Below, piece after piece: positions 11,051-63,668 of a stretch of DNA of 64,000 bases (position 1 is its first letter; every line of letters starts with the position of its first letter). Position numbers and translations under genes: made by a program. Source of the DNA: Myxococcota bacterium (GTDB lineage: Bacteria > Myxococcota_A > JAVEVO01); NCBI GenBank assembly GCA_034005005.1, contig JAVEVO010000003.1:25493-89492 (forward strand). The letters run 5' to 3'. Below the pieces are notes generated by a model, which was not told the origin of the DNA, did not search any database, and was given only the letters and a program-made list of their open reading frames with translations.

Positions 11051-11058
11051 GCGAGACC

Positions 11059-14648: not shown

Positions 14649-15616
14649 ACGGCCGGATCCTCGCGCTGGTCACCGACCCCCGCATCCGCCGGGGAGTGCT
14701 GCGCACCCTGGCCGCCACCCGCTCCACGGTAGTCGAGGCTCCCGATCTCGCCACCGCGGCGGCCTACCTGGGCCAGGCCTCCTACGACCTGTTGATCCTC
14801 GATCACGACGCCTGCCCGGGCGAGCACGTCGCGGCGTTCCTCGCGGAGGCCTACGCGCGGCTCTCGCCCCTGACGCCCGTGTTCCTGCTCGCCGACCGGC
14901 TGGCCGACGAGGAGCTGGCCCGGCTCTTCTCCAGCGGCATGCTGACCCACCTGCTGGCCAAGTCGGAGCCGTTCGATCCGCACGAGCTCCTCGTCTCGTG
15001 TGAGCGGGTGCTGCGGGGTGACATCTTCGGGCTCGAGAAGTACCTCGCCTGGGGGATCGAGCCGGAGACGTTGCTGGTGCGTGGCTCGGCCGACCGGGAG
15101 CACATCCTCGAGCGGCTGAATCGCTACCTCGACGAGCTCGCCATCCCCTCCCGGCTGGCAGGCTTCGCGCAGGGCGTGGCCGACGAGCTGCTGATGAACG
15201 CGGTCTACAACGCGCCGGTCGATGCGCAGGGGCGACGGCTCTTCGCCGGCCGCAGCCGGACCGAGAAGCTCGTGCTGCCGCCTGGTCAGGAGGCGCTCTT
15301 CCGCTACGCGTGCGATGGTCGCTGGCTCGCGCTCTCGGTGCGGGACTCGTTCGGCTCCCTCGAGCGCGACGTGCTCTTCGCCAACCTCGGCCGCTGCCTG
15401 CTGCACGGCCAGGACCAGATCTCCGACAAGCCGGGCGGGGCGGGGATGGGGCTGTTCGTGGTCCTGTCCTCCGTCAACAGCTTCGTGGTCAGCCTCGCTC
15501 CCGGTCGGGCCACCGAGATGATCGGCCTGCTCGACGTCACCGGCTCGTACAAGACCTTCGCGGCTCGGCCCAAGTCCTTCCACCTCTTCTTCGGCGAGAT
15601 GCGCCCGGGAGGTTGA
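14645..15616 (+). CDS. receiver (REC)-like domain protein with C-terminal GHKL/HATPase-like region (RsbW/anti-sigma-kinase-like)
   Basis: ATGA overlap with the previous gene. The N-terminus has a CheY-like pattern (ILALVTD...DLLILDHD). The C-terminus has ELLMNAVYNAP and GAGMGLFVV, resembling N and G boxes of HATPase_c. Confidence 0.55.
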   Translation: MNGRILALVTDPRIRRGVLRTLAATRSTVVEAPDLATAAAYLGQASYDLLILDHDACPGEHVAAFLAEAYARLSPLTPVFLLADRLADEELARLFSSGMLTHLLAKSEPFDPHELLVSCERVLRGDIFGLEKYLAWGIEPETLLVRGSADREHILERLNRYLDELAIPSRLAGFAQGVADELLMNAVYNAPVDAQGRRLFAGRSRTEKLVLPPGQEALFRYACDGRWLALSVRDSFGSLERDVLFANLGRCLLHGQDQISDKPGGAGMGLFVVLSSVNSFVVSLAPGRATEMIGLLDVTGSYKTFAARPKSFHLFFGEMRPGG

Positions 15617-15620
15617 AGCC

Positions 15621-17861
15621 GTGCCGTTGGTCTGTGCCACCTGCGAGCGGACGTTCGAGGAGGGGACCTACTGTCCCTTCGACGGCACCCGGCTGCACGA
15701 CCCGACGCTCGAGCAGAGCCTCCCGGATCCGCTGATCGGGCGGATCCTCGACGGGCGCTACCTGCTCGAGCAGCGGGTGGGTGCCGGGGGCATGGGCACC
15801 GTCTACCGGGCCCGCCACGTGCTGATGGAGAAGGCGGTAGCGGTCAAGGTGCTGCGGCCCGAGCTGGCCAACGACGCCTACGCCGCGGGACGCTTCCGGC
15901 GGGAAGCGCGCAGCGCCAGCCGGATCATGCACGAGAACTGCGTGGCGGTGACCGATTTCGGCCAGGAGCCGGACGGGACGCACTTCCTCGTGATGGAGTA
16001 CGTCGAGGGCGAGACGCTCTGGCACCTGCTGCGGGAAGGTGGGCCGCTGCCGGTCGGCCGCCTGCTCGACACCGCGATCCAGGTGGCCCGGGCCCTGAGC
16101 GCCGCCCACGAGCAGGGGGTGATCCACCGGGACCTCAAGCCCGAGAACGTCATGCTCGTCCTGCGGGACGAGCGTCGTAACCTTGTGAAAGTGCTCGATT
16201 TTGGCCTGGCCAAGGTGATCCAGGCTTCGGACGAGAACGCCTTCACCGCGATCACCCGGCACGGGATGATCTTCGGCACGCCGCGCTATATGGCCCCGGA
16301 GCAGATCGAGGGCCGCGACATCGATCCGCGGGCGGATCTGTACAGCTTCGGGGTCATGCTCTACGAGATGGCCTCCGGCAAGCTGCCCTTCGAGGACCGC
16401 TCGGTCGTGGCCTTGCTCAACAAGCACGTCCACGAGGAGCCGGTGCCGCCTTCCCTCCGGGTGCCCGAGCTCGAGATCCCGGTCGGTCTCGAGCAGCTCA
16501 TCCTCCTGCTGATGGCGAAGCAGCCGACCGATCGGCCAGCGAGCTCCCGCGAGGTGCTGCGGCGGCTGGAAGACCTCGATCAGGAGCTCCGGCAGCCCGT
16601 GGCCGCGGCCTCGCCCCTGCCCACGACCCCGGAGGCGGTCTCTCTCCTCCCGGCCCCGCGGCGCGGGAGCTGGCTGCTCCCCGCCTTGCTCGGCGCCGCG
16701 GTCGCCGCGGTGGCCATCTTCTTGCTCCTCTGGTTCACGGGCGGCCCGCCCCCCCGGCCGCCGCGCGCCGGCGCGGGGACCGCGGCCCCGGTCGACGGCT
16801 CGCTCCCGGGTACGGCCCCGCCGGCGGCCGGCTCGGCCCTGGCCACGCCGCCTCCCGTGGAGGTGGCGGCTGTCGCGGTCCCGGCACCCCGGTCGCCCGG
16901 TCCGGGGCCGGCCGCGGCCGGGACGGGATCTCCCCACGAGCCCCCGGCAACCGCCTCGCCCCGCGCGCTCGTGGCGGTCGTCCCCGGCGCGGCGGTCGTC
17001 CCCGGCGCGGCGCCTCCCGTGCTCTCGCCCACGCCGCCCGCGGCCGTCCCGGGCCGGGCCACGGTCACGGCTCCCCCGGCCTCGCCGGCCCCGCACGCGG
17101 CTCCCCTGGCCCCCAGCCCGACCCCGCGGCCCGGCCCGGCCGCGCGTCCGGCCGCGGGCCGTTCCCGCCCACTCCTCCCGGCCCCGGCGGCCTCCCCGGT
17201 CCCCGGTGCCGCCAGCCCTCGGGCCGCTCCGGATGTGCCGGTCGCCTCCCGGCCAGCCAGCCCCAGGCCGACCCCCGCGCCAGCCCCCGCGCCGGCCCCC
17301 GCGCCGGCCCCCGCGCCGGTCCCCGCGCCGGCCCCCGCGCCGGCCCCCGCGCCGGCCCCCGTGGCCGCGACCGTGGTCTCGCCGCCAGCCATCCCCTCGC
17401 CCTCGCTCCCGGTCCTGCCCGGCCCCTCCCGCTCGCCCGGCAGCGCCGGTGCCCCCGTCCTCCCCGTCACGGCCAGCCCTGCGGCGCCGGCCCCCGCGGC
17501 CGGCTCCTCGGAGGTGGCGGGGTTGCTCGGCCAGGCGCGCCAGGCGCTGGCTCGCCGGGACGAGGTCGCCGCGGCCAGTATCCTCCAGCGCGCCCTCTCC
17601 CTGGCCCCCAACGATCCCCGGGTCCACCTCGGCTTCGCCAACTTCCACTTCGAGCGCGGCAGCCTCGAGGCGGCCCAGCGGTCTGCGCAGCGGGCCGTGG
17701 CCCTCCGGCCGGGGGGCATCGCCGAGCTGTTGCTGCTCGGCCAGATCCACTACAAGCAGGGCGACCGCGACCTCGCCTGCACCACCTTCCTCGAGGTGCT
17801 CCGGCTGCAGCCCAATCAACAGAAGGCGCAGCACTACGTCAGCCTGGCCCGCTGCCGCTGA
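15621..17861 (+). CDS. Ser/Thr protein kinase with N-terminal zinc-ribbon-like CxxC...C motif, Pro/Ala-rich linker and C-terminal TPR
   Basis: GTG start 5 bp after the previous stop. Hanks motifs present (GAGGMGTVY, VAVK, HRDLKPENVML, DFGLA, APE). A (PAPAPA)n stretch is encoded by 12-bp tandem repeats near 17270-17370. TPR units at the C-terminus. Confidence 0.85.
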   Translation: MPLVCATCERTFEEGTYCPFDGTRLHDPTLEQSLPDPLIGRILDGRYLLEQRVGAGGMGTVYRARHVLMEKAVAVKVLRPELANDAYAAGRFRREARSASRIMHENCVAVTDFGQEPDGTHFLVMEYVEGETLWHLLREGGPLPVGRLLDTAIQVARALSAAHEQGVIHRDLKPENVMLVLRDERRNLVKVLDFGLAKVIQASDENAFTAITRHGMIFGTPRYMAPEQIEGRDIDPRADLYSFGVMLYEMASGKLPFEDRSVVALLNKHVHEEPVPPSLRVPELEIPVGLEQLILLLMAKQPTDRPASSREVLRRLEDLDQELRQPVAAASPLPTTPEAVSLLPAPRRGSWLLPALLGAAVAAVAIFLLLWFTGGPPPRPPRAGAGTAAPVDGSLPGTAPPAAGSALATPPPVEVAAVAVPAPRSPGPGPAAAGTGSPHEPPATASPRALVAVVPGAAVVPGAAPPVLSPTPPAAVPGRATVTAPPASPAPHAAPLAPSPTPRPGPAARPAAGRSRPLLPAPAASPVPGAASPRAAPDVPVASRPASPRPTPAPAPAPAPAPAPAPVPAPAPAPAPAPAPVAATVVSPPAIPSPSLPVLPGPSRSPGSAGAPVLPVTASPAAPAPAAGSSEVAGLLGQARQALARRDEVAAASILQRALSLAPNDPRVHLGFANFHFERGSLEAAQRSAQRAVALRPGGIAELLLLGQIHYKQGDRDLACTTFLEVLRLQPNQQKAQHYVSLARCR
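17270..17375 (+). repeat. 12-bp tandem repeat (gcgccggccccc)n encoding (PAPA)n linker of the kinase
   Basis: Directly visible tandem units. Confidence 0.8.
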
Positions 17862-17977: not shown

Positions 17978-18841
17978 ATGTTCGACCCAGCAGCGACTTT
18001 CCCGCGGATCGCCCGCACCCTCCCCTGGAACGGCCGGGGCCACGCTCCGTGTCAGGAGATCCGGATCGGCACGGTAGGCCTCGGCGGCCCCGATCCGGTC
18101 ATCATCGGCGGCCCCTGCGCGGTGGAGAGCCGCGAGCAGCTCCTCGCCCTCGCCCGGGAGGTGAAGCAAGCCGGCGGCCAGATGCTGCGCGGCGGCGCGT
18201 TCAAGCCGCGCACCAGCCCCTACTCGTTCCAGGGGCTCGGCCTGCAGGGGCTGGACTTCCTGGCCGAGGCCCGGGCCGAGACGGGTCTGCCCATCGTCAC
18301 CGAGGTGATGGATCCCCGGCTCATCGAACGCGTCGGGGAGGTCGCGGACCTCCTCCAGGTGGGCTGTCGTTCCATGCAGAATTTTCCGCTGCTCATGGAA
18401 CTTGGCCGACAGCCGCGCCCCGTGCTGCTGAAGCGGGGGTTCTGCTCCACCCTCGAGGAGTGGCTCGGCGCGGCCGAGTACATCGCCAAGGGCGGCAACG
18501 ACCGGATCGTGCTCTGCGAGCGGGGGATCCGCAGCTTCACCGCGGGGGAGTATGCCCGGAATACGTCGGATATCAACGTCGTGCAGCCGGTCCTGGCGAG
18601 CACCCGGCTCCCCCTGATCTTCGACCCCAGCCACTCCACGGGGGACGCGGCGCTCGTGCCCTCGGTGGCCCGTGCGGCCCTGGCGGCCGGCGTGCACGGC
18701 CTGCTCGTCGAGGTGCGGACCCCGGCCACCCCGCCCGAGTCCTTGCTCTCGGATGGCCTCCAGGCCGTGACCCCCGGAACGCTCGCGGAGATCGTCCGCT
18801 TCGCCCGCTGGATCCGGGACTGGCGGGAGTCCGAGCAGTGA
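17978..18841 (+). CDS. 3-deoxy-D-arabino-heptulosonate 7-phosphate (DAHP) synthase, class I-beta (KDO8P-synthase-like)
   Basis: Motifs GPCAVES, GGAFKPRTSPYSFQGLG, PIVTEVMD, QVGCRSMQNF, PVLLKRG and LCERGIR are present. ATG at 17978 (MFDPAATFP) is preferred over the TTG at 17900. Confidence 0.85.
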   Translation: MFDPAATFPRIARTLPWNGRGHAPCQEIRIGTVGLGGPDPVIIGGPCAVESREQLLALAREVKQAGGQMLRGGAFKPRTSPYSFQGLGLQGLDFLAEARAETGLPIVTEVMDPRLIERVGEVADLLQVGCRSMQNFPLLMELGRQPRPVLLKRGFCSTLEEWLGAAEYIAKGGNDRIVLCERGIRSFTAGEYARNTSDINVVQPVLASTRLPLIFDPSHSTGDAALVPSVARAALAAGVHGLLVEVRTPATPPESLLSDGLQAVTPGTLAEIVRFARWIRDWRESEQ

Positions 18842-18858
18842 GCCGCGGCCGGGTCGAC

Positions 18859-20484
18859 ATGGCCCGGGCCGGCCGGGCCCGCCTGCTGCTGCTCGGCCTT
18901 CTGCTCCCGGCCTGCGCCTCCCCGGCCGCGACCCCGGCCGTCCCCCCGCTCGTCCTGGTCCAGGTGCCCGTCGGCTCGCCGGCGGCCGCCTGGTCCACCA
19001 CGGTCGAGCCCGCGTACCCCGCGGGGACCCGCCTGCTCCTCCTCGACCCCGCGGGCGGCCCGCCGCGCGTGCTCTCGCCGGGCCTGGACGTCGCCGCCTG
19101 GCCGGCGCCCAGCCCCGACGGCCGGCAGGTCCTCTTCGCCGGCCGGCGAGGGCCGGCGGATCCCTTCACCCTCTGGATCAGCGATCTCACCGGCGCGCCG
19201 CCGCAACCCTTCCCCGCGGGGCCCGGATCCTGCACGAACCCTCGCTGGATCGCCGCGGATCACGTCGTCATGCGCTGCGCGGCCAGCTTGCCGGCCCTCA
19301 CCGTGAGCAATCCCGGCGCCTTGTGGGTCGTCGGCCCGGGGAAACTCCCTCCCCGCCGCATCACCTTCGGCGTCCACCCGCAGTTCTCGCCCGAGGTGCT
19401 CCCCGACGGCCGGCTGGTCTATGGCGAGCGCGTCCTCGACCGGCCGCCACCGGAGGTCGATCCGGGCACGCTCCCCGGGGAGCGGATCGCCTTGCGGGCG
19501 GTCGACCCCGACGGGGCCGGGGCCGAGCGCTACCATGACCGCCTGCTCGAGCCGACCTACAAGCTGCGGGTGAAGCGCGGCGGCGAGGGCCGGTTGCTGA
19601 TCGTCGGTGGCCTCCCGGGCGAGACCCGGCCTGGCCCCGGGCGGCTGTTTCAGCTCGCGACCGGCTGGCCCGCGGTCCACGCCGAGCCGCTCCGCCCCGA
19701 CCTCGGCGGGCCGGTGGTCGGGGCCGCGGCCCTGCCCGGCGGCGGCCTGCTCCTCTGTCGGCAGGTCCCCGACGACCCGGTGTTCTCCCTGCAGTGGCTC
19801 CCGTCCGCGCTCGGCGGCGAGCCGCAGACCTGGCACCGCGACCCCGCCTTCCACGTGGCCGACGTCGAGCCGGTGCTCCCCTGGTCCCCCCCGTCGCTGC
19901 CGCTGTCCACCCTCGACGGGAGCGGCCGGGGCTGGCTCCTCCTCCTCGACCCCAGCGTCACCGAGCCGGGCTCCCTCGTCAGCGTGAGCCGCTATGGCCT
20001 CCACTCGGCGGTGCTGCTCGCCCCGGAGCCCGCCCCCGCCCCTCCCGAGGAAGGGCTCCCCGATCCCGATGACTTCCTGACCACGCGCCGGCTCCCGCCG
20101 CCGGCTGACCCCTACGCCGAGGCCGGGGGCTACACGCCCGAGACGCGGCGACGCCCCCTCGGTGAGTTCGCGGTGCAGCCCGACGGCTCGTTCCTGGTCG
20201 CGCTGCCGGCCGACACGCCCCTCACCCTGCGACTGCTCGGCGCCGGCGGCACCTACGCGGGTGACGTCCCGGGCTGGTTCTGGCTGCGGCCCGGCGAGAT
20301 CCGGAGCTGCCTGGGCTGCCACGAGGATCCCGGGCGGCTGCCGCCCAACGAGGTCTTCCTCGCCACGACCCGCCCGCCCTCCGTGCTGGGGCCGGTGATC
20401 CACGAGCCGCCCCCGCCGCCGGCCGTCGAGCTCCCCGTCGGCGCGCCCGGCGACGTCCCCCCGGACGCGGAGCTGCCGCGATGA
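18859..20484 (+). CDS. lipoprotein, hypothetical, with single CxxCH motif (CLGCH) near C-terminus
   Basis: ATG 18859 (an alternative GTG at 18838 overlaps the DAHP synthase stop). Lipobox LLLPAC. Pro/Gly-rich. The 17206..20484 track ORF is a read-through. Confidence 0.6.
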   Translation: MARAGRARLLLLGLLLPACASPAATPAVPPLVLVQVPVGSPAAAWSTTVEPAYPAGTRLLLLDPAGGPPRVLSPGLDVAAWPAPSPDGRQVLFAGRRGPADPFTLWISDLTGAPPQPFPAGPGSCTNPRWIAADHVVMRCAASLPALTVSNPGALWVVGPGKLPPRRITFGVHPQFSPEVLPDGRLVYGERVLDRPPPEVDPGTLPGERIALRAVDPDGAGAERYHDRLLEPTYKLRVKRGGEGRLLIVGGLPGETRPGPGRLFQLATGWPAVHAEPLRPDLGGPVVGAAALPGGGLLLCRQVPDDPVFSLQWLPSALGGEPQTWHRDPAFHVADVEPVLPWSPPSLPLSTLDGSGRGWLLLLDPSVTEPGSLVSVSRYGLHSAVLLAPEPAPAPPEEGLPDPDDFLTTRRLPPPADPYAEAGGYTPETRRRPLGEFAVQPDGSFLVALPADTPLTLRLLGAGGTYAGDVPGWFWLRPGEIRSCLGCHEDPGRLPPNEVFLATTRPPSVLGPVIHEPPPPPAVELPVGAPGDVPPDAELPR

Positions 20485-22475
20485 CCACCTCCTCCTCGTC
20501 CGGGCCGGCTCCCGCCCCGCCCCGCCCCGCCCCGCGGCGCCGGCGAGCGCTGTTGCTGCTGCTTTTCGGCGGCCTGCTGGTCGGCGGGCTGGTGCTCTGG
20601 TTGCGCCAGCAGGCGCAAGACCACCTCGCGATGACCCTGCGGGACCCGGCGGCCGGGTTCGGGGCCTGCTGGGACTGCCACGGCACCGGCCAGCCGCCGC
20701 GTCCCCTGCCGCGCCAGCCGCCCGCCCCCCTCGGGCTCGCGCTCCTCCCCGGGGGCGACCTGCTCGTCGGCGCCACCGGGGACGACAGCCTCTACCGCCT
20801 CGACCCCGCGCGGGCGCGCATCCGCTGGCGTCTGGACGTCGGCCCTCGTCCTCACGGGGTCGCGGTCGTCGACGGGGGAGCCCGCGCGCTCGTCGCGCTC
20901 CGGGACGCCGACGCCCTGGTCCCGGTGGATTTGGCGGCGCCGCGTCGCGAGGAGCCGATCCCCGTCGGGCGTGAGCCGACCGCGGTCGCGGTGGCCGCGC
21001 GCTGGGGGATCGCCCTGGTGACCAACAGCGGCTCCGACGACGTCTCGGTGGTCGATCTCCCGACGCGGCGCGAGCGCTACCGGCTGCCCGCGGGCCGTGA
21101 GCCCTACGCGGTCGCGATCGACCCGCAGGAGCGGCTGGCCGTGGTGGCCAACCGCCTGGTCTCCCCCCACGCCCCGCGCACCCCCCCCAGCAGCGAGGTG
21201 ACCGTCATCCTCCTCGGGAAGCGGCCCCGGGTCCTGGAGCGGCGGCAGTTGCCGTCGATCCACCTCGCCGAGAGCGTGGCGATCACCCCGGACGGCCAGC
21301 TCGCCCTGATCCCGGCCATGGTGACCCGCAACCTGCTCCCGACGACCCAGACCCGCCGCGGCTGGGTGGCGGCCAGCGTGCTCGTCGTCCTCGAGCTGGC
21401 CGAGCGCGGCCGGATCGTGCCGATCCTCCTCGACGGGCTCGATGACTACCACGCCGACCCCACGGCCGTCGCGCTCGAACCGGCGGGGCGGTTCGCGTAC
21501 CTGGCCAGCGGCGGGCGAGATCGGGTCCTCGAGCTCGACCTGGCGAAGCTCCGCCGTCTGCTCGAGGGGGAGGCGGCCGACGTCCTCCAGTCCCTCGGCA
21601 CCCGCCTCGGCCCGGGGACCTTGCTGCTCGCCCGTCGCTTCCCCACGGCGGCCAACCCCCGGGGGCTGGCCGTCGCCGAGGGGCGGCTGTACGTCAGCGA
21701 GCGACTCGCCGACGGCGTGGCGGTCTTCGACCTCGCCGCCGGCACGCTCCAGCACCGGTTCGCGCTCGGGCTGCTCGGGGGGCCCTCCCTGCAACAGCAG
21801 GGTGAGCAGCTCTTCTACCGCGCCTCGGCCTACCAGGGGCAGTTCTCCTGCCGCACGTGTCACCCCGACGGTCACCTCGACGGCCTGACCTACGACTTCG
21901 AGATCGACGGCCTCGGGGAGAACTTCGTCGACAACCGCAGCCTGCGCGGGCTCGTCGGCACGGCCCCCTTCAAGTGGACGGGGCTCAACCCGACCCTCGA
22001 CGTCCAGTGCGGTCCCCGCTTCTCCCGCATCCTCGGTCGCAGCCGTCCGTTCTCCGACGCCCAGAGCGCGGCCCTGCACGTCTTCGTCAACGCCCTGCCC
22101 ACGGCCAACGGTCGGCGTCCGCCCGTCGACACCCCGGAGGTCCGCCTCGGGCGGGAGGTGTTCTACCGGACCCGCACCCGCACCGGCGAGCTGATCCCGG
22201 TGCGTGACCGCTGTCCCTCCTGCCATCCGGCCCCGACCTTCACCAGCCAGACGCGCAGTCGCGTCGGCACGGGCGCACAGTCCGACTTCACCGACGTGTT
22301 CGACGCGCCCCACCTCCTCGACCTGCGCGACGGCCTCCCCTACCTGCACGACGGGCGCGCCGGGAGCCTGATGGAGCTGTTCGTGCGCGAGGACCCCGCG
22401 GAGCATCACGGCCGCACCCGCGACCTGGATCGGGTCGAGCTCAACGCGCTCGTCGAGTACCTGAGGACGCTGTGA
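20481..22475 (+). CDS. beta-propeller (YVTN/lactonase-like) repeat protein with three CxxCH haem-binding motifs (c-type cytochrome-like)
   Basis: ATGA overlap with the upstream gene. N-terminal TM/signal anchor. CWDCH, CRTCH and CPSCH motifs. The repeated DxxxxxxYVxxxxxxxVxVxD pattern is typical of YVTN propeller blades. Confidence 0.65.
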   Translation: MTTSSSSGPAPAPPRPAPRRRRALLLLLFGGLLVGGLVLWLRQQAQDHLAMTLRDPAAGFGACWDCHGTGQPPRPLPRQPPAPLGLALLPGGDLLVGATGDDSLYRLDPARARIRWRLDVGPRPHGVAVVDGGARALVALRDADALVPVDLAAPRREEPIPVGREPTAVAVAARWGIALVTNSGSDDVSVVDLPTRRERYRLPAGREPYAVAIDPQERLAVVANRLVSPHAPRTPPSSEVTVILLGKRPRVLERRQLPSIHLAESVAITPDGQLALIPAMVTRNLLPTTQTRRGWVAASVLVVLELAERGRIVPILLDGLDDYHADPTAVALEPAGRFAYLASGGRDRVLELDLAKLRRLLEGEAADVLQSLGTRLGPGTLLLARRFPTAANPRGLAVAEGRLYVSERLADGVAVFDLAAGTLQHRFALGLLGGPSLQQQGEQLFYRASAYQGQFSCRTCHPDGHLDGLTYDFEIDGLGENFVDNRSLRGLVGTAPFKWTGLNPTLDVQCGPRFSRILGRSRPFSDAQSAALHVFVNALPTANGRRPPVDTPEVRLGREVFYRTRTRTGELIPVRDRCPSCHPAPTFTSQTRSRVGTGAQSDFTDVFDAPHLLDLRDGLPYLHDGRAGSLMELFVREDPAEHHGRTRDLDRVELNALVEYLRTL

Positions 22476-24724
22476 ATCTTTTCACACGAATCGCCTTGCC
22501 GCTCGGCCTCTCCTTGCTCCTGGCCACTCCGGCCGTGGCTGCGCCCCCCGCGCTCTGCTCCCGCTGGACGATCCACGACCCCTCGCGCGGCTTCCCCTCT
22601 GGCCGGGTCTACGAGGTGGTGCTGGACGAGGGGCAGCCCTGGGTGGCCACGGACAACGGCCTGGCCACCCTCGAGGCGGACGCCTGGCGCGTGATCGGCC
22701 CGGACCAGGGGTTGCCCCATCCCGAGGTCTGGGGGGTCGCGGTCGCGCCGAACCGCGACGTCTGGGCGGCCACGGCCGGCGGCCTGGCTCGGCTCAGCGG
22801 CGGGCGCGTCGATGTCTTCCACACCCGCAACAGCGGCCTCCCGGCCGACCTCGTCTACGACGTCACCTTGCGGGACCGGGAGGTCTGGGTCGCCACGGCC
22901 GGCGGGTTGGCCCGGCTGGACACCGACACGGGGGCGTGGCAGGTCTGGACCCCCGCCAACTCCCCGCTCCCCGTCGGCACCCTCCAGCAGGTCCAGTGCC
23001 GGGGCCCGGAGGTCTGGGTCGCCACCTTCGGCGCGGGCCTCTGGCGGCTCGACGAGCAGGGCCGCTGGCAGGGGTTCGCGGACCCCGACGGGGACGCGCG
23101 CCTCGACCGGAAGCCGGCCGACGGCCTGCAGCACGACGCCCCCACCACCCTGCTCGTCCGGCCCGACGAGGTCCTCGTCGGCCAGGAGATCGGCCTGTCG
23201 GCCTTGCAGGGAGACCAGTTCTCCGAGCTGCTCCCCCTCTCTGCGGATCCGACCCCGGGGGGCGCCACCCTCCCGGCCCACGTGCTCTCCCTGGCCGCGG
23301 CCGGCCCCCGACTGTACGTCGGCACCGCGTCGGGCCTGCTGGTCCGGGAAGCCGGCGGCTGGCTCGTCTACCGGGAGCGACCGGGAGGCCTGCGCCAGGC
23401 CGTGGAGTACCCGGCCGCGGTCCCCGGTCGGGCCCCGCGCGCCCACGCCGTGGAGAGCCCGGCCCCCTGTGGGGCGATCCGCAGCCTCGCGGTGGGCCCG
23501 GACGAGCTCTGGCTCGCCTTCCCCGGCGGGCTGGCCCACTGCCGGGAGGAGGCGGAAGCCCCGGGCTGGCCGCCCGCGGCCCCGCCCGCAACCGTCACGG
23601 CCCCGGGGCTCCTCTTCCCCCGGGATCACGACAAGCTCTTCGCCGCGTCCGCCTCCCGGGACGACTCCCCGGCCTCCCCCGGGCTGGTCGCCGCGGCCCG
23701 GATCGGCCTCCTGCTGCCCCCGGACGGCCGCACGGTCGCGGCCACGAGCTTCGCCCGGGGCGCCCAGCGCTCGCTGGACGGCTATCCGGGCGGGGCGCGC
23801 TGGGGTCGGGAGCGGCTACCGATCCAGCTCGTCACGGGCCACGTCCCGGACCTCCCCTGGGAGGGGCTCGCCGCGCAGGCCGCGCTCGACCTCGCCCGAC
23901 GGCAGAAGATCCAGCTCCTGGTGGTCGTCGGGGGCGGGACCCCGGTGGCCCAGCTCGAGGTCGCCCAGCTCGCCCGGCAGATCGGGCTCCCCGTGCTGCT
24001 GCTCGGGAGCGACGAGCCCTTGCTGCCGCACGCCGGGAGCGGCTGGGTGACGACCCTCGGCTGGAGCGTCCGGGCGCAGCTCCGGGGTCTGATCCAGCGC
24101 CTGCGCACCGTCGGCCCCCGGCGGCTGGTCCTGCTGGTCGACGACTCCCGCTACGCGGCAGCGGGAGAGCAGGTGCTGGCCGCGGAGCTCGCGGCCCGCG
24201 GCCTGTCCCTGGCCGGGGTCGTCCGCCACCGCCGCGGTCAGCCCCTCCTCGCCACGGTCCAGGAGCTGAGCCTGCTCTCCCCCGACGCCCTGCTCTTGTG
24301 GGCCCCCGGCCCCGCGGCCGGGGAGCTGCTGCGGGCCTTGCGGGCGGCGGGGGTCGGCTGCCCCTGCTTCGGCCCCTCGGCCCTCGCCAGCGCCGAGTTC
24401 TTGGGGCCGGCCGCGGAGCTGGCCGGAGGCTGCACCGTCGGGCTGACCGTGCGCCGCCGGCCGGAGTTCGTCACGGTGGCCCCGGAGCCCTGGTCCGCTG
24501 CGTCGGGCGATCCCGCGGGGGTGTGGGAGCAGCTCGGTGAAGAGCTGCTCTACTGGCTCGTCGGCGCGCTCGTGGCCTCGCCCACCCTGAGCCGGAGCGA
24601 GGTGGCCGCGACCTTGCGGACGGTCTTGCCCGGCTGGTCGTTCGAGCGGTTGCTGCCAGCCGGCAACGGCATCGGCGGGGCGCCCTTCGGGGTCGTGCGG
24701 GGTGGGGTGGTGGTGCCGGAGTAG
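22472..24724 (+). CDS. secreted fusion: N-terminal two-component-regulator-propeller-like repeats plus C-terminal type-1 periplasmic binding protein (LivK-like) domain
   Basis: GTG overlaps the TGA of the upstream gene. Signal peptide. Repeated WVATxxGLARL units, then a C-terminal region resembling branched-chain amino-acid binding proteins. Confidence 0.6.
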   Translation: MNLFTRIALPLGLSLLLATPAVAAPPALCSRWTIHDPSRGFPSGRVYEVVLDEGQPWVATDNGLATLEADAWRVIGPDQGLPHPEVWGVAVAPNRDVWAATAGGLARLSGGRVDVFHTRNSGLPADLVYDVTLRDREVWVATAGGLARLDTDTGAWQVWTPANSPLPVGTLQQVQCRGPEVWVATFGAGLWRLDEQGRWQGFADPDGDARLDRKPADGLQHDAPTTLLVRPDEVLVGQEIGLSALQGDQFSELLPLSADPTPGGATLPAHVLSLAAAGPRLYVGTASGLLVREAGGWLVYRERPGGLRQAVEYPAAVPGRAPRAHAVESPAPCGAIRSLAVGPDELWLAFPGGLAHCREEAEAPGWPPAAPPATVTAPGLLFPRDHDKLFAASASRDDSPASPGLVAAARIGLLLPPDGRTVAATSFARGAQRSLDGYPGGARWGRERLPIQLVTGHVPDLPWEGLAAQAALDLARRQKIQLLVVVGGGTPVAQLEVAQLARQIGLPVLLLGSDEPLLPHAGSGWVTTLGWSVRAQLRGLIQRLRTVGPRRLVLLVDDSRYAAAGEQVLAAELAARGLSLAGVVRHRRGQPLLATVQELSLLSPDALLLWAPGPAAGELLRALRAAGVGCPCFGPSALASAEFLGPAAELAGGCTVGLTVRRRPEFVTVAPEPWSAASGDPAGVWEQLGEELLYWLVGALVASPTLSRSEVAATLRTVLPGWSFERLLPAGNGIGGAPFGVVRGGVVVPE

Positions 24725-24734
24725 CCTCCGGTGC

Positions 24735-26048
24735 TCAGGGCATCCGGTAGCGGTTCCCGCGCTGCTGCTCGGCCTTCGCCTCCTCCGCGATGGCCGCGTC
24801 GAGGTACTCGACCTGGGCCTCTCCGTACCAGCGCTGCTCCAGCTCCAGGAGCCGCTGCTGGTACGTTCGTCCCTGGAGCAGCTTGCGGATCTCGGCCTTC
24901 AGGCCCTCGTCGAGGGGCCGCTGGTGCCCGGCCCGCTCTTCCACCACCTGGATCAGGTGGAACCCCAGCTCGGTCTGCACCACGTCCGAGATCCCCCCGA
25001 CGGGCAGGCTGAAGGCCACCTGGTCGAAGGCGGCGGGCATCTGGCCCTTCTTCAGCAGGCCGAGGTCGCCCCCGCGCTCCCGGGTCGCGCCCTCGCTGCG
25101 GGTCCGGGCGACCTCCACGAAGTCCTTGCCGCTGCGCACCAGGCGCAGGGCGTCCTCGGCCTGGGAGCGGGCGACCTGCGCGGCCAGGGGGCCGGCGCCC
25201 TCGGGGATCTGGAAGAAGATCTGGCGCAGCCGGCGCTGCCGGGGCTTGTAGTAGTCGGCCTGCCGGGTCTGATAGTGCTCCGCGATCGCGGCGTCGGTGA
25301 TCGTCAGGTCGCCGAGGCCCTTGGCGATGAGGGCATCGTGGAGCACCTTGGCCGCCAGGTCGCCCTTCACGTCCTCCTCGGTGACGTGCATGTGGCCGAG
25401 GAAGCGGGGCCAGTTCGCCTGGCCGCCCCGGTCCTCGACGAACTTCTGGAAGTCCTTCTCCAGGGTCTCGGGGGAGATCACGACGCCGAGCTCGGCCGCC
25501 TTCTGCCGGTCGATGGTTCGGCGCACGAGCTGGTTCAAGGTGCCGCCGACGACCTGCTTCCAGACGCTCTGGGGCATGCTGCGGGTCAGGCCGAAGAAGG
25601 CATCCAGGGAGCGCTGCACGCGTTCGTTGTAGATCGCCCGGGGGATCTCCTCGCCGTTGACCCGGGCCACCGGGCCGGTGCCCTCGGGCGGGCGGCGGGG
25701 CACCTCGGGGTTGGTGGCGCTGGCGCGGGGGAGCCGGTTGACGTGCGCGCCCGGCGGGAGCTTCAGCCCCAGGTCGGGCTCGTCGGGGACGCCGCCGTCC
25801 GCGGTCGCGGCAGGAGGTGGCGTGTCGACCGGCGGGGTGGCGGTCGGGGTCTCGGGGGTGGGGGAGGGCTCGGCGCGGGGCCGCTGATCGGGGAAGGGGC
25901 TGGGCGCGTCGAGCCAGGGCGCGGCGTTCGGCGTGGTCCCCGGCGCGGCCGGGCCAGGGGCCTCCGGCGCGGGCGGACAGCCCGCGAGCAACGTCCCGAG
26001 AAGCAGCGTGGCGGCGGGCAGCAGTCGCCTGGTCGTTTCTGGCAGCAA
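24735..26048 (-). CDS. lipoprotein peptidyl-prolyl cis-trans isomerase, parvulin (PpiC/SurA-PrsA-like) family
   Basis: Parvulin signature GGDLGLLKKGQMPAAFDQVAFSL..GGISDVVQTELGFHLIQV. Lipobox LLAGC. The start is proposed as TTG at 26048 preceded by AGGAGGG. The track ORF extends to 26129 (ATG), which would put about 27 residues ahead of the signal peptide. Confidence 0.65.
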   Translation of the reverse strand: MLPETTRRLLPAATLLLGTLLAGCPPAPEAPGPAAPGTTPNAAPWLDAPSPFPDQRPRAEPSPTPETPTATPPVDTPPPAATADGGVPDEPDLGLKLPPGAHVNRLPRASATNPEVPRRPPEGTGPVARVNGEEIPRAIYNERVQRSLDAFFGLTRSMPQSVWKQVVGGTLNQLVRRTIDRQKAAELGVVISPETLEKDFQKFVEDRGGQANWPRFLGHMHVTEEDVKGDLAAKVLHDALIAKGLGDLTITDAAIAEHYQTRQADYYKPRQRRLRQIFFQIPEGAGPLAAQVARSQAEDALRLVRSGKDFVEVARTRSEGATRERGGDLGLLKKGQMPAAFDQVAFSLPVGGISDVVQTELGFHLIQVVEERAGHQRPLDEGLKAEIRKLLQGRTYQQRLLELEQRWYGEAQVEYLDAAIAEEAKAEQQRGNRYRMP

Positions 26049-26191
26049 GGGCTCCCTCCTGCCGGCGGTGCGCCGGCTGTCCAGATCCCCGGAGATCCCG
26101 GAGAGCAGGTTATACACCAACCCGTGCAATCCGGGAGGGGGGCAGCCCGTCGCGCGTCATCGCCTGCCGGGAGGCGTGTCCGGGCCGCTGG

Positions 26192-26219
26192 TTGACGGGT
26201 CGCGGCGGCCCGATATACT
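26192..26219 (+). promoter_or_regulatory. candidate sigma70-type promoter (TTGACG - 16 nt - TATACT) upstream of the 26343 gene
   Basis: Sequence match only. It lies ~124 bp upstream of the ATG, in a divergent intergenic region. Confidence 0.3.
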
Positions 26220-26342
26220 GCCCTGGCCCGCTCGGCCGGGCCCGCGACCGGGCGCGCCCCCGGTCCTGTCGTCGCGAGGTGCGCCAGCGGCGTCAGTCTC
26301 CCAGCACTCGCGCAAGGCTCGAGCCTCCAGGAGCGCCTCACC

Positions 26343-27518
26343 ATGGACCAGCAGCGACGTGGCGAGAACACTACCCAGCACGGTAGCCGTAGTGGTGGTC
26401 GGGCGTGGCCCTGGCTGTCGCTGCTGCTGCTCGGCGGGGTCGCGGCCTGCGACCGGCAGGCCGCGCCCGTCTTCGCGGTCGATCGCGTCGTCGAGCAGAG
26501 CGGCCTGCTCGATCCCCTGCTCCGGCAAGCCGGGGTCGCGGCGACGGTGGTGCCGGGCAGCACGGGTGATGCCTTGCTCCTGGCCGGGCAGGCGCGGGCC
26601 GACCTGATCCTGGTCGCCGCCCCCCAGGAGGTGGCGCGGCTGGTCGGCGAGGGGCGGGTCGCGCAGTCCGCCATCCTGATGCACAACGAGTACGTCCTCG
26701 TCGGTCGCGAGACCGATCCGGCCAACGTGCGGGCGGCGCGCGACGGCGCCCAGGCCTTGCGGACGATCAACCGCAGCGGCAGCAGCTTCATCGTCCCGGC
26801 GCGCGGCAGCGCGGCCCGCTTCAAGCTGGAGCAGGTCTGGAGCCTGCAGACCGACCAGCGCGCCTCGCCCGGCTTCACCGGGGCCGAGGGCGACGTGCGG
26901 GAGGCGGTGCTCGCGGCCCACGCCCAGGGCTCCTACACCCTCGTCGACCGCGCCACCCGGCTCACCTACCTCGAGGCCCGGGGGCTCAAGCCCCGGCTGC
27001 TGCTCACGGGCGGGCCGGAGATGGCCAACCCGTACCACCTCGTGCTGCTCAACCCCCTGCCCGGCGAGGAGAAGCGGGCCGCGGCCGCCCGCCAGCTCTT
27101 CACCGCGCTCACGAGCGAGGCTGCCCGGCGGGTCATCGCCGGCTTCGGCCTCACTCGTTACGGCGAGCGCCTGTTCGAGCCGGGGGAGCCGCCCCCGGGC
27201 GAGCCCGTCCAGTATCGCCAGCTCTCGTCGCCCCTGCTGCCCAGCGTCGCCCCGCTGCGACCGGGCGCCGAGGCGTTGCCCAACCCCCATGGAGCGGGAG
27301 GGCTGCCCATGCGCTCGCCCCACGGGGCGATGGGGGTCATGCCCGGGGCCGGGCCCTCCCCTCACGGGGAGCTGCCGGGCGGCCACTTCCCGGGCGAGCC
27401 CCCGCCGGGCGGCCCTCACCCGGGCGGCCCCCATCATCCGGGCGGCCCCCTGCCGGGGGAGGCGCCGGCCCTCCCGCCCGCTCCCGTCGCGCCCGGGCCG
27501 GCCGGGAGCGCTCCGTGA
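26343..27518 (+). CDS. lipoprotein, PBP-like (tungstate/phosphate-type) substrate-binding domain with His/Pro/Gly-rich C-terminal tail
   Basis: Lipobox GGVAAC. The body resembles the PBP_like_2 / TupA-type solute-binding fold. The tail contains repeated PHG/HPGG units (PNPHGAGG..SPHGAMG..SPHGELPGGHFPGEPPPGGPHPGGPHHPGGP). Confidence 0.6.
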   Translation: MDQQRRGENTTQHGSRSGGRAWPWLSLLLLGGVAACDRQAAPVFAVDRVVEQSGLLDPLLRQAGVAATVVPGSTGDALLLAGQARADLILVAAPQEVARLVGEGRVAQSAILMHNEYVLVGRETDPANVRAARDGAQALRTINRSGSSFIVPARGSAARFKLEQVWSLQTDQRASPGFTGAEGDVREAVLAAHAQGSYTLVDRATRLTYLEARGLKPRLLLTGGPEMANPYHLVLLNPLPGEEKRAAAARQLFTALTSEAARRVIAGFGLTRYGERLFEPGEPPPGEPVQYRQLSSPLLPSVAPLRPGAEALPNPHGAGGLPMRSPHGAMGVMPGAGPSPHGELPGGHFPGEPPPGGPHPGGPHHPGGPLPGEAPALPPAPVAPGPAGSAP

Positions 27519-44464: not shown

Positions 44465-44989
44465 ATGGGCTCGCTCGGAAACCAGTGGGGGTGGCAGCAG
44501 TGGCTGCTCTACGGTGGGCTGCTCGCGGCCGCCCTGCAGGATCTGTCCTGGCGACGGATCCCCAACTGGTTCTCCCTCCCTTTCCTCGCCGTCGGCCTCG
44601 TGGTCCAGGGGCTCACGGGCGGCGGCCGGGGTCTCCTCGTCGGCTTGCTCGGGGCCGCGGTCGGTCTGCTGCTGCTCTTGTTGCCCTTTTCCCTCCGGCT
44701 GCTCCGGGGAGGTGACGTGAAGCTGCTGGCCGCGATGGGGGCCTGGCTCGGCCCGCTGCCCGTCCTGGTGGCCACCCTGGTCGGGGCCGTCCTCGCCGGA
44801 GTGCTCGTCGCCGGGCTGCTGGTGGGCCGGCCGGCCTTGCGCCGGGAGGTCGTCGCCAACCTCCGGGGGCTCGTGCTGGGGCTCGGTCTGCCCCGGCCAC
44901 CCGTGCGCCCACCCCACCTCGCGGTCCCCCTGGGGACGGCCCTGGCTGCCGGTGGGGTGCTGACCCACCTCTTCGGCTGGGGGAGCTGA
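44465..44989 (+). CDS. cpaA: prepilin peptidase CpaA/TadV (A24 family)
   Basis: Polytopic membrane protein with DLSWRRIPN and GGDVKLLAAMGAWLG motifs. Lies directly downstream of flp. Confidence 0.75.
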   Translation: MGSLGNQWGWQQWLLYGGLLAAALQDLSWRRIPNWFSLPFLAVGLVVQGLTGGGRGLLVGLLGAAVGLLLLLLPFSLRLLRGGDVKLLAAMGAWLGPLPVLVATLVGAVLAGVLVAGLLVGRPALRREVVANLRGLVLGLGLPRPPVRPPHLAVPLGTALAAGGVLTHLFGWGS

Positions 44990-45447: not shown

Positions 45448-45541
45448 GCCCCCGGCACGGTGATCCTCTGCGAGCTGTTCGGGCGCGATCCCCGTTCGTG
45501 TCGGTGATGAATGACGATATCCGTGGTGAGGTGAGATCGTC

Positions 45542-46426: not shown

Positions 46427-46521
46427 CCGCCCCTGGCCTCCGGAGCCCCGAGGCGCCTCGGGTGCCTCGCTCCGTCCACGGCTCGCCGGCGCGGGCGAGC
46501 AGACCGTCGAGAGAGGGAGTC

Positions 46522-47934: not shown

Positions 47935-47940
47935 GACGGG

Positions 47941-49194: not shown

Positions 49195-49196
49195 CC

Positions 49197-50504: not shown

Positions 50505-50508
50505 CGCC

Positions 50509-51468: not shown

Positions 51469-51483
51469 CAGGAGGAGGACTCG

Positions 51484-53621: not shown

Positions 53622-53645
53622 GCGCCGCCTAGGTCGGAGGCGAGC

Positions 53646-59717: not shown

Positions 59718-63668
<3,951 letters not shown>

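Follow-up and report, generated by a model that had tools for sequence, protein, structure and literature searches.

Hydrazine synthase (HZS), whose gene hzsA is a diagnostic marker of anaerobic ammonium oxidation (anammox) in metagenomes, has to our knowledge long been regarded as an enzyme without relatives. The present analysis concerns a 64,000-nucleotide stretch of DNA, hereafter the window, from a Myxococcota metagenome-assembled genome (MAG; GCA_034005005.1, contig JAVEVO010000003.1, positions 25,493 to 89,492), in which four adjacent genes, g1 to g4, encode a type I-beta DAHP synthase (DAHPS), two homologues of HZS subunits and a Reg_prop propeller fused to a type-1 periplasmic binding (PBP1) domain. 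The locus belongs to an already described family of HZS homologues outside anammox and represents it in Myxococcota with a compact set of four genes. Relative to the available parts of the published descriptions, the new elements are the recurrent linkage of the family to a regulator-free DAHPS and the accompanying Reg_prop, PBP1 and Rid-like gene context.

In the anammox enzyme, haem alphaI is ligated by Tyr591, its CxxCH His binding Zn together with Cys303, and a bis-His haem alphaII occupies the C-terminal domain of the same subunit. Haem gammaI is held by a third covalent bond to Cys165 and has an Asp water-linked to its axial site; gammaHis144 is a further key residue, and a beta loop with a Mg-binding Glu lies in the tunnel between the two sites (PMC12758564, PMC12607021, and in part general background). 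Pairs of an hzs-like alpha gene and a fused beta-gamma gene were reported in 2023 from Phycisphaerae (UBA1845; our locus L078 is from that study), where the available part of the text suggests a broader enzyme family with other substrates (PMC10732223). A cold-seep study of 2025, in its available part, reads such genes as anammox potential in ten further phyla and presents their transcription and predicted heterotrimers (PMC11828985). Hagglund et al. (Genome Biol Evol, December 2025) distinguished clades I–IV of co-localised HZS homologues; in clade III an FG-GAP gene stands upstream, the alpha homologue lacks alphaII, the beta-gamma homologue has one extra haem motif and two substrate-binding-protein genes follow downstream (PMC12758564). 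The same authors state that the beta-loop Glu is not conserved in the homologues, that clades I–III have a 2-residue gap at Ser590/Tyr591 and that the gamma-domain Trp is equivalent to that of cytochrome c peroxidase (CCP) and MauG; with key residues not conserved they rejected the anammox reading and proposed no function (PMC12758564). DAHP synthase, shikimate and RidA are not mentioned in the text of PMC12758564, nor in the available parts of PMC10732223 and PMC11828985, and the available part of PMC12758564 makes no mention of a Reg_prop gene.

Hydrazine synthase homologues in a four-gene locus

The locus comprises four genes on the same strand:

17978–18841, + strand: type I-beta DAHP synthase (g1)
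18859–20484, + strand: HZS-alpha-like lipoprotein (g2), with an alternative GTG start at 18838
20481–22475, + strand: HZS beta-gamma-like fusion (g3)
22472–24724, + strand: secreted fusion of a Reg_prop propeller and a type-1 periplasmic binding domain (g4)

An earlier reading of the DNA, made from the sequence only, had described g2 to g4 as a module that could not be assigned to a characterised system. This no longer holds, as g2 and g3 are clear homologues of anammox HZS subunits. The g2 protein matches Pfam PF18582 HZS_alpha, the alpha-subunit middle domain of hydrazine synthase, at 2.8e-15 and above the gathering threshold (GA), and the profile of its family (A3, 49 sequences) matches the alpha chain of Kuenenia HZS (5C2V_A) at 3.4e-77. 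The alignment spans the N-terminal propeller and the haem-alphaI middle domain and stops at residue 561 of 782. The AlphaFold2 (AF2) model of g2 has a predicted local distance difference test (pLDDT) value of 82.6 and 5C2V_A as its top Foldseek match (E 1.6e-23, TMq 0.69); TolB-type propellers come far behind in the list and cover the N-terminal part only. The protein of 541 aa has a single CxxCH:

20308–20322 (aa 484–488), + strand: haem motif CLGCH of g2, aligned with CSGCH of HZS haem alphaI

This motif is invariant in 49/49 homologues. The 53-aa tail that follows it contains no Tyr, and the haem-alphaII domain is absent from g2, which has one CxxCH and stops 53 aa past it. At the column aligned with GNCDGE of HZS-alpha the family consensus of g2 has no Cys.

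Similarly, g3 combines in one chain the folds of the other two HZS subunits. A transmembrane (TM) anchor and an N-terminal monohaem segment are followed by a seven-bladed YVTN propeller and a CCP/MauG-like di-haem domain, with the following features:

20547–20606 (aa 23–42), + strand: TM helix of g3, Kyte-Doolittle 19-residue mean 2.55
20667–20681 (aa 63–67), + strand: extra haem motif CWDCH, membrane-proximal and N-terminal
21330–21368, + strand: loop of propeller blade 6, NLLPTTQTRRGWV, the equivalent of the HZS-beta loop gating the inter-subunit tunnel
21849–21863 (aa 457–461), + strand: haem motif CRTCH, aligned with haem gammaI, the catalytic haem of HZS-gamma
21975–22010, + strand: stretch from W499 to C510, in the profile alignment the counterparts of gammaHis144 and gammaCys165
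22212–22226 (aa 578–582), + strand: haem motif CPSCH, aligned with haem gammaII

The profile of the g3 family (A1) matches 5C2V_B at 4e-73 and 5C2V_C at 5e-45. The AF2 model (pLDDT 82.2), which places a helix at aa 19–52, has 5C2V_B as its top Foldseek match (E 2e-25, TMt 0.90). Against NCBIfam, g3 reaches 3.4e-22 for hydrazine_beta, 4.6e-19 for the beta-gamma fusion model hydrazine_BC and 1e-9 for hydrazine_gamma, all far below the cut-offs. Pfam PF03150 CCP_MauG scores 22.9 bits against g3, below its GA of 25.6, and 42.2 bits against a Bacteroidales homologue. A generic YVTN propeller or CCP was considered for g3 and discarded; the best PDB matches are HZS beta and gamma by sequence and profile, and beta also by fold.

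Composition predicts 0.0014 CxxCH motifs per protein, and none of 20000 shuffles of g3 reaches three. The counts of one CxxCH in g2 and three in g3 given earlier are correct, as is the presence of the propeller; the placement of all three motifs on the propeller is not, one haem preceding it and two lying in the C-terminal di-haem domain. Loss of the CxxCH motifs in orthologues had been named beforehand as evidence against the reading. The motifs are kept: those at 457 and 578 of g3 are invariant in 80/80 sequences, like that of g2 in its 49, and the N-terminal one at 63 is found in ~73/81 family members. In the family alignment A2, H67 is invariant and H48, C63 and C66 almost so, H48 being a candidate sixth ligand of the N-terminal haem.

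The residues around the g3 haems depart from those of HZS at several points. W499 stands for gammaHis144 and R513, just downstream of C510, for gammaAsp168, both being present in 80/80 sequences; gammaAsp168, as reportedly numbered by Dietl et al. 2015, is presumably the Asp of PMC12607021. In the blade-6 loop Q290 (75/80) and W295 (73/80) are conserved, together with P287 and G294, and Q290 occupies the profile-alignment column of the HZS-beta loop Glu. This last equivalence and that of R513 with gammaAsp168 follow our own conversion between chain positions and published residue numbers, which for the Glu presumes a numbering offset that we deduced. Because model confidence in the di-haem domain is low, the pairing of C510 with gammaCys165 and of R513 with gammaAsp168 is taken from the profile alignment only. 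Position 510 (C510, 22008–22010) is Cys in 29 and Asp in 51 of the 80 sequences, the source lineage having Cys. The Asp-bearing sequences that were inspected are from Bacteroidota and show the motif KQDGMRF; as pure speculation, the Cys/Asp alternation might reflect another covalent haem link, for example an ester as in mammalian peroxidases. H623, D624 and H643 are invariant (80/80), and H643 is aligned with the His of DMHGRT in HZS-gamma, which suggests that it is a candidate distal ligand and that the gammaII-like haem may be bis-His ligated.

Membership of the HZS family is shown by adjacent genes that match the alpha, beta and gamma folds, with 5C2V profiles for all three and Foldseek for alpha and beta, the check that the sequence-only reading had proposed. 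The NCBIfam equivalogs NF052339, NF052340, NF052341 and NF052342 are not reached (19.7 vs 800, 79 vs 560, 37.7 vs 625 and 68 vs 1250 bits, respectively), the scores lying ~10- to 40-fold under the cut-offs. The 64-kb window contains neither hao/hdh nor nir genes, nor any further cytochrome gene or open reading frame (ORF) with CxxCH, and its host, a Myxococcota MAG, is not a member of Brocadiia. We are highly confident that g2 and g3 form a non-anammox HZS-family complex, and judging from its residues the predicted complex is not one that makes hydrazine.

Distribution of the family and conserved gene neighbourhood

Three Myxococcota-type relatives (L081–L083), with 50–61% identity in g3, have the same gene order: a substrate-binding protein (SBP)-like gene, a 323-aa protein, a Ser/Thr kinase, DAHPS, alpha-like, beta-gamma-like, Reg_prop(-PBP1) and an opposite-strand peptidyl-prolyl isomerase (PPIase). 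A wider scan of one genome per species with a 12-sequence alignment as query gave 80 loci, 31–41% identical to g3, from Gemmatimonadota, Verrucomicrobiota, Acidobacteriota, Bacteroidota, Phycisphaerae, Chlorobiota and Binatia. Among the Bacteroidota loci are those of the cultured isolates Maribacter polysiphoniae, M. arenosus and Lutimonas saemankumensis, and Maribacter and other Bacteroidota loci with the architecture of clade III are 31–35% identical to g3. Maribacter and Lutimonas are marine flavobacteria with an aerobic metabolism. In 77/80 loci the beta-gamma-like gene directly follows an alpha-like gene, and in 77/80 it is directly followed by a g4-type propeller. Thus, the trio of g2, g3 and g4 is syntenic outside the source genome, in 77/80 loci from at least six other phyla and in 3/3 close relatives. 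The alpha-like family as a whole amounts to 2,338 clusters at 50% identity with E <= 1e-30 against the alpha-like profile.

ORF clustering and an annotated Bacteroidales representative define a larger canonical cluster of nine genes:

genes 1 to 3: FG-GAP/ASPIC (CRTAC1-like), alpha-like, beta-gamma-like
genes 4 to 6: Reg_prop propeller, Rid/L-PSP-like protein with weak chorismatase similarity, PBP1
genes 7 to 9: DAHPS, PBP1, large TPR-FG-GAP protein

The FG-GAP/CRTAC1-family gene precedes the alpha homologue in 72/80 of these other loci and the Rid/chorismatase-like gene is present in 38/52. The source locus is a reduced cluster, with DAHPS, alpha-like, beta-gamma-like and the propeller fused to one PBP1. 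No FG-GAP gene was seen among the called genes of the three close relatives.

Several accessory proteins of the wider cluster were also inspected. The Rid/L-PSP-like protein (L027:13268–13843) is cytoplasmic, ~194 aa long with an N-terminal extension of ~80 aa, and is weakly similar to the FkbO/Hyg5 chorismatases (TIGR04444, 4e-6). In place of the Arg of the aligned PH0854 (PARV) it carries Ser (PAST), at a position that we take to be the catalytic Arg of RidA. Its assignment as a canonical RidA deaminase is doubtful on account of this substitution, and instead of being an imine deaminase it may have a compound derived from chorismate as its substrate. Along the outer margin of the cluster, 10 loci encode an AsnB-like (asparagine-synthase-like PP-loop) enzyme and 5 a radical SAM protein of RaSEA-like type, the lineages being Verrucomicrobiota, Chlorobiota and Bacteroidota (examples are L056:17780–20366, L029:5719–6738, L024, L039, L058, L052, L061, L074 and L076); further cases are probably hidden by the 10-kb flank limit. 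In Verrucomicrobiota 8 loci include a Tll0287-like c-haem protein, a gene that was searched for and not found in the 64-kb window.

Operon structure and localisation

With ~73% GC in the window, the ORF lists are crowded with shadows. Genes were chosen by third-position GC (GC3), which picked out the four same-strand genes with GC3 of 0.90–0.95 in the called frames; these calls and the junction sequences confirm the four genes, their coordinates and their junctions as first read. The g1 stop codon is TGA 18839–18841, overlapped as GTGA by the GTG at 18838, and the ATG at 18859 lies 17 nt downstream. A database protein (P0091) that is 100% identical has 548 aa, a length compatible with the GTG start of g2. 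The g2/g3 junction is ATGA (20481–20484, a 4-nt overlap) and the g3/g4 junction GTGA (22472–22475). These overlapping stop and start codons support a translationally coupled operon, in line with the co-translation proposed before. Upstream of g1 there is a GAGGAG Shine-Dalgarno sequence and a 116-nt gap to a kinase gene; promoter and terminator scans of the operon region (75% GC) gave nothing useful. The g2 N-terminus ends in the lipobox-like LLLPAC, with Cys19 as the lipobox cysteine, g3 has the strong N-terminal TM helix, g4 has a signal peptide and g1 has none of these.

The linked DAHP synthase

g1 scores 303.1 bits against TIGR01361 (cut-off 267.75) and 2.4e-63 against PF00793, and its best PDB match is 1VS1 (276-aa chain, 3e-79). 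The motifs GPC, KPRTSPYSFQG, KRG, ERGIR, DPSH, VEV and LSDG are all present and aligned with 1VS1 and 3PG8; we take their catalytic and metal-site roles to be those of the T. maritima enzyme. With TIGR01361 above its cut-off and the motifs complete, the class I-beta assignment made from the sequence stands. No ferredoxin-like (FXD) or chorismate-mutase domain was found in g1, where only ~25–30 residues precede the aligned barrel and the open frame reaches only 62 codons upstream of the barrel match. A peculiarity was observed at ~18720–18760 (aa ~248–262), where g1 reads VEVRTPATPPESLLSDG and the solved type I-beta enzymes (V/I)EVHP--(N/E)PE-ALSD. This places EVR and a 3-residue insertion where the solved enzymes have EVH, which the linked copy of Bacteroidales keeps; the Glu adjacent to these changes is presumably a metal ligand.

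A DAHPS lies inside the cluster in 31 of the 52 loci with enough flank, in five phyla, distributed as follows:

Bacteroidota outside Flavobacteriaceae: 26 of 28
Gemmatimonadota: 2 of 3
Acidobacteriota: 1 of 2, plus one upstream copy found by tblastn
Phycisphaerae: 2 of 3
Verrucomicrobiota: 0 of 10
Flavobacteriaceae: 0 of 4

All four Myxococcota-type loci (4/4) have it as well. The DAHPS does travel with the trio, which had been left as a question for synteny analysis, and the linked copies are of the regulator-free type. Its position varies among at least three places, between the two PBP1 genes, after both of them or upstream of the alpha-like gene; retention at varying positions argues for selection on the linkage. 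The closest unlinked relatives, collected in a metagenome scan (47–57% identity), provide the comparison: the ferredoxin-like regulatory domain occurs in 0/45 linked DAHPSs and in 14/17 unlinked ones with an intact N-terminus (Fisher 2e-11), or, counted by independent clades, in 0/5 linked and 4/5 unlinked (p = 0.05). These relatives, where flank is available, do not adjoin HZS-like genes, with one exception, L103. On that metagenome contig (L103:3616–6968) a DAHPS with a ferredoxin-like domain lies directly upstream of a distant beta-gamma-like gene (23–28% identity). The one unlinked copy with fully annotated neighbours, L097, has the ferredoxin-like domain and belongs to a shikimate operon that also encodes EPSP synthase, shikimate dehydrogenase and chorismate synthase. 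DAHPS distances co-vary with the distances of the HZS-like genes (Spearman 0.88–0.89). Among the tests of the linkage, by tree, by distances and by regulatory domain, the last was the informative one. The bare-barrel DAHPS is feedback-insensitive, as work on the Thermotoga and Pyrococcus enzymes established, and the linked DAHPS is therefore the kind of enzyme that gives dedicated access to the shikimate pathway free of regulation. Functional coupling of g1 to the HZS-like complex is, in our judgement, probable.

The propeller and binding-domain fusion g4

The g4 protein has three parts:

aa 1–24, + strand: signal peptide
22559–23551 (~aa 30–360), + strand: Reg_prop propeller of the "ligand-binding sensor" type, judged from homologues
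23699–24706 (~aa 410–745), + strand: PBP1 domain, Peripla_BP_6

Its N-terminus is 33% identical (E 3e-43) to a separate propeller protein of locus L027, which matches Pfam Reg_prop, and resembles the "ligand-binding sensor domains" found in numerous histidine kinases and diguanylate cyclases. Peripla_BP_6 matches aa 467–716 with 53.7 bits (GA 31.7; 3.5e-14). These matches uphold the description of g4 as regulator-propeller repeats fused to a LivK-like domain. A periplasmic redox module with a ligand-binding partner is likewise upheld, and ligand sensing in the sense of signalling is unsupported because g4 has no output domain. In most other phyla the propeller and the PBP1 are separate adjacent genes, and their fusion in g4 therefore argues for joint action, an argument of the Rosetta-stone type. 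Cognate ABC permease or ATPase genes were found neither among the conserved neighbour families of the 80 loci nor near g4. The PBP1 of Bacteroidales matches HAAT-family binding proteins, mostly annotated as binders of branched-chain amino acids or amides; some of the entries matched are presumably aromatic-acid binders.

Proposed function

In the favoured explanation g2 and g3 would together form an HZS-type complex that has two haem active sites and sits at the periplasmic side of the inner membrane. Electrons would enter through the extra N-terminal haem of g3 and pass by the gammaII-like haem to the gammaI-like catalytic haem, the membrane-proximal haem replacing the missing alphaII as electron port. 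An analogy for such a port is offered by YhjA, a tri-haem quinol peroxidase with a TM helix and an N-terminal haem (PMC10301912). The gammaI-like haem may reduce or activate a small oxidant, candidates being peroxide, NO and hydroxylamine; its site keeps the HZS-type third Cys in the source subgroup and has Trp as in CCP/MauG and Arg in place of Asp. The loop NLLPTTQTRRGW of g3 would act as the gate of a tunnel between the two haem pockets. This loop, together with the open, His-ligated haem of the alpha-like subunit, suggests a second step at the second site, where the alpha-like haem might act on the product of the first or on a second substrate. g4 would bind this second substrate or dock it to the complex. 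Whenever the operon is expressed g1 would open the shikimate pathway free of feedback control, supplying a chorismate-derived aromatic as ligand or co-substrate of the system, and in other phyla the Rid/chorismatase-like, AsnB-like and radical SAM proteins might tailor the g1-derived compound.

We assign this explanation as a whole, comprising an HZS-type complex, oxidant chemistry, a g4 ligand and an aromatic supplied by g1, a probability of roughly 0.55. A number of observations weigh against it. The Verrucomicrobiota and Flavobacteriaceae clusters do without a DAHPS, which is therefore not essential to the core function. The linked DAHPSs do not form one exclusive clade, a rough neighbour-joining tree giving two linked groups with unlinked sequences interleaved, and species phylogeny can underlie the co-variation of DAHPS and HZS-like distances. 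Model quality is poor in the C-terminal di-haem domain of g3 (pLDDT 40–60), and the chemistry is deduced from residues. The PBP1 domain of g4 matches no solved binding protein by sequence at E <= 0.01, and homologues of the FG-GAP (by tblastn), Rid-like, AsnB-like and radical SAM proteins were not found anywhere in the 64 kb. For the role of g1 in particular, dedicated precursor supply rather than stress back-up is put forward tentatively, and any specific chemistry named for the complex is unlikely to prove right.

An improbable, more far-reaching proposal is that the HZS-like complex is a bond-forming or multi-step N-oxide enzyme, in one of two versions. In version (a) it could be an ancestral-type periplasmic reductase of NO to NH2OH and NH4+ (or of peroxide) and a precursor of anammox HZS, the path to which would involve re-ligation of the alpha haem and loss of the membrane anchor. 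In version (b) a reactive N/O intermediate from the gamma-like haem could be joined to an aromatic or amine of shikimate origin bound by the PBP1/propeller protein, giving an N-N, N-C or N-O bond, with the co-substrate fed by the DAHPS and the Rid, AsnB and radical SAM genes. Either version, if true, would mean a new and widespread periplasmic pathway (over 2,300 clusters at 50% identity) and a first functional handle on the origin of anammox. The chemistry of the family bears on how the anammox enzyme arose and on hzsA as a marker gene, and the locus shows residue by residue why the anammox reading (PMC11828985) is unsafe for this branch of the family. The linkage to a regulator-free DAHPS leads to testable hypotheses, an aromatic co-substrate or an oxidant-stress module.

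Alternative explanations

The oxidant-stress module, in which the operon serves oxidant defence or peroxide respiration, is the alternative that survives best, although we consider it unlikely. Here g2 and g3 would be a membrane-anchored periplasmic peroxidase drawing on respiratory electrons and scavenging H2O2 or other reactive oxygen or nitrogen species, like E. coli YhjA/Ccp with its three haems. A back-up role would fall to g1, as a DAHPS co-induced because mononuclear-metal DAHPS is a primary target of H2O2 and superoxide, and the Rid-like protein would serve damage control. The CCP/MauG-type W499 (80/80) in place of the HZS His and the invariant Arg in place of the HZS Asp suit a peroxidase, and the succession of TM helix, N-terminal haem and di-haem unit parallels YhjA (PMC10301912). 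Moreover, H2O2 inactivates the Fe(II) site of DAHPS and causes aromatic auxotrophy, and E. coli induces the periplasm-facing Ccp when stressed in this way (PMC8115020). A cytoplasmic g1 in one operon with periplasmic proteins would be explained without a full pathway. To judge by record titles, many hosts come from groundwater, fen, bog or sediment or are Bacteroidales, and many of them may live where oxic and anoxic zones meet. A peroxidase, however, needs no alpha-like second haem subunit, tunnel loop or binding proteins, and CCP_MauG stays below its GA in g3 (22.9 vs 25.6). The electron-transfer haem of a classical CCP is His/Met ligated. The gammaII-like haem is apparently bis-His through H643, and its HZS counterpart is of low potential, about -330 mV (PMC12607021). 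g1 keeps the Cys/His/Glu/Asp metal-site motifs of the solved enzymes, with nothing that marks oxidant resistance. For the Rid-like protein, a damage-control role is at odds with the Ser (PAST vs PARV in PH0854) at what is presumably the catalytic Arg of RidA.

It is rather improbable that the DAHPS is an ordinary housekeeping gene merely beside the trio, its adjacency being devoid of functional meaning. The tree of linked DAHPSs, which are not a single clade and interleave with unlinked relatives at 52–57% identity, the clusters of Verrucomicrobiota and Flavobacteriaceae that lack the gene and the fully standard catalytic motifs would all suit a housekeeping enzyme. This explanation nevertheless has to account for adjacency in five phyla at different cluster positions, for a g1 stop that overlaps or abuts the g2 start and for the contrast in the regulatory domain (0/45 linked vs 14/17 unlinked), while the one fully annotated unlinked copy is the one that sits in a shikimate operon.

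A slim chance is given to a maturation system of the MauG/MbnH kind, in which the di-haem unit of g3 would use peroxide or O2 to oxidise a Trp or Tyr of a partner, namely the alpha-like subunit, the Reg_prop propeller or the PBP1, yielding a protein-derived cofactor or metal site and a mature partner as the functional end product. The g3 family shows a weak, consistent similarity to MauG, MbnH and the MauG-like models of His-Xaa-Ser systems, the Trp between the haems is conserved as in MauG, and the exported non-enzymatic proteins in tight synteny (propeller, PBP1, FG-GAP) are possible substrates. The match to HZS-gamma is far better (5e-45 vs 1.4e-14 for 6E1C, the latter over aa 590–629 only), however, and the conserved haem site of the alpha-like subunit itself points to catalysis rather than a substrate role. 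No conserved target Trp or Tyr motif was found, and the DAHPS link is left unexplained.

A genuine hydrazine synthase, meaning cryptic anammox or hydrazine formation outside Brocadiia as read in the available part of PMC11828985, could appeal to the homology to three subunits, the adjacent alpha and fused beta-gamma genes as in Scalindua, the retained C510 and tunnel loop and the cold-seep transcription and predicted heterotrimers, but is ruled out as scarcely credible by residues and domains (no Tyr after the alphaI CxxCH, no alphaII domain, the Trp, Arg and Gln replacements), by NCBIfam scores far under the cut-offs, by gene context (no hao/hdh, nir or other cytochrome in 64 kb) and by hosts that include cultured Maribacter and Lutimonas and the present Myxococcota MAG, the conclusion that Hagglund et al. 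reached for these clades (PMC12758564).

Other genes in the window

Upstream of g1 (13548–17861) lie an SBP-like gene with weak Phosphonate-bd similarity, a 323-aa protein with no family match, the N-terminus of which resembles a receiver domain on visual inspection, and a Ser/Thr kinase that has a TPR domain and a long linker rich in Pro. The three are in the same order in L081 and L082 (44–67% identity) and may be lineage-specific regulators of the operon; Bacteroidales have instead a histidine kinase and response regulator pair upstream of the cluster. The downstream region 24735–29371 encodes a SurA-like PPIase (minus strand), a TupA-like (tungstate-type) binding protein whose tail is rich in Pro, Gly and His, and a lipoprotein that contains long (EGEG)n repeats as well as PPC domains. 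These neighbours are conserved in L081, the PPIase also in L082 and L083, and a periplasmic PPIase beside exported propeller proteins could be a folding helper.

Further away, 44465–54935 holds a complete-looking Tad/Flp pilus cluster with an A24 prepilin peptidase, RcpC/CpaB, a ParA-like CpaE, the CpaF ATPase, two T2SSF proteins, a TPR protein and a TadG-like VWA protein. Two giant proteins of 1455 and 1316 aa (55290–59657, + strand, and 59718–63668, - strand) are built from MopE-type "Cu-binding" Cys-rich repeats, one of them with a C-terminal FGE-sulfatase-like domain. A TSP type-3 repeat protein is encoded at 42048–44114 and a tetrapyrrole-methylase-family protein with N-terminal SEPDPE acidic repeats at 3482–4558. 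At ~11050–13400 (+ strand) an uninterrupted frame encodes a 783-aa TPR protein where calling by GC3 had picked three short minus-strand ORFs, a warning that at 75% GC the right frame has to be chosen with caution.

Comparison with known systems

The DAHPS g1 shares with the unregulated type I-beta enzymes 1VS1 and 1ZCO, which we take to be the Aeropyrum pernix and Pyrococcus furiosus deposits, a bare (beta/alpha)8 barrel with standard motifs and no allosteric domain. Like the DAHPSs of natural-product clusters (BagF/FevY, NF041229) it is embedded in a non-shikimate gene cluster. In contrast to BagF/FevY it scores 260 bits where the cut-off is 700, and its neighbours are periplasmic haem and binding proteins with no recognisable biosynthetic pathway.

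Clusters of pyrroloquinoline quinone (PQQ)-dependent dehydrogenases also combine a periplasmic redox enzyme with a YVTN propeller and an orphan binding protein of type 1, ABC permease and ATPase genes being absent nearby, and weak matches to TIGR03866 PQQ_ABC_repeats (50 vs 287) and TIGR03863 PQQ_ABC_bind (18.6 vs 414) were obtained. Unlike those clusters, the present locus has no PQQ enzyme and its propeller is part of the haem protein itself.

With the di-haem CCP/MauG proteins (PF03150), g3 has in common two c-haems in a CCP-type domain, a Trp between them and a PYxHDG motif, and with YhjA a TM helix and an additional N-terminal haem able to take electrons from the membrane pool. In contrast to all of these, a 350-residue propeller separates the N-terminal haem of g3 from its di-haem unit, and there is an obligatory alpha-like partner with a haem site of its own as well as a third Cys aligned with the haem-linking Cys of HZS-gamma. 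A further difference from CCP/MauG is the probable His, instead of Met or Tyr, as distal ligand of the second haem.

The fold and domain order of all three subunits are shared with the HZS of Kuenenia stuttgartiensis (5C2V), together with the motifs of haems alphaI, gammaI and gammaII, the Cys aligned with gammaCys165 and the blade-6 insertion loop, and the beta-gamma fusion is shared with the HZS of Scalindua. In contrast to HZS, g2 lacks the alphaII haem domain, the Tyr591 ligand and the Zn site, and g3 has Trp for gammaHis144, Arg for gammaAsp168 and an extra N-terminal haem. HZS is soluble in the anammoxosome, whereas g3 has a TM anchor and g2 a lipoprotein anchor. The order of alpha followed by beta-gamma is the reverse of that in anammox bacteria, and there are no hdh/hao partners nearby.

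The closest resemblance is to clade III. In both, the alpha homologue lies immediately upstream of the fused beta-gamma homologue, lacks haem alphaII and is ~100 residues shorter, the beta-gamma homologue has exactly one extra N-terminal haem motif and a PBP1 module follows downstream; the alphaTyr591/Zn site and the beta-loop Glu are absent and gammaHis144 is replaced by Trp. The present locus differs from the clade in having no FG-GAP/CRTAC1 gene in the 64 kb and in the fusion of Reg_prop with a single PBP1, and from its description in the DAHPS that comes first in the operon, in its Myxococcota host and in a g3 that is 31–41% identical to the loci of other phyla. By its gene architecture the source locus thus appears to match clade III in a reduced form.

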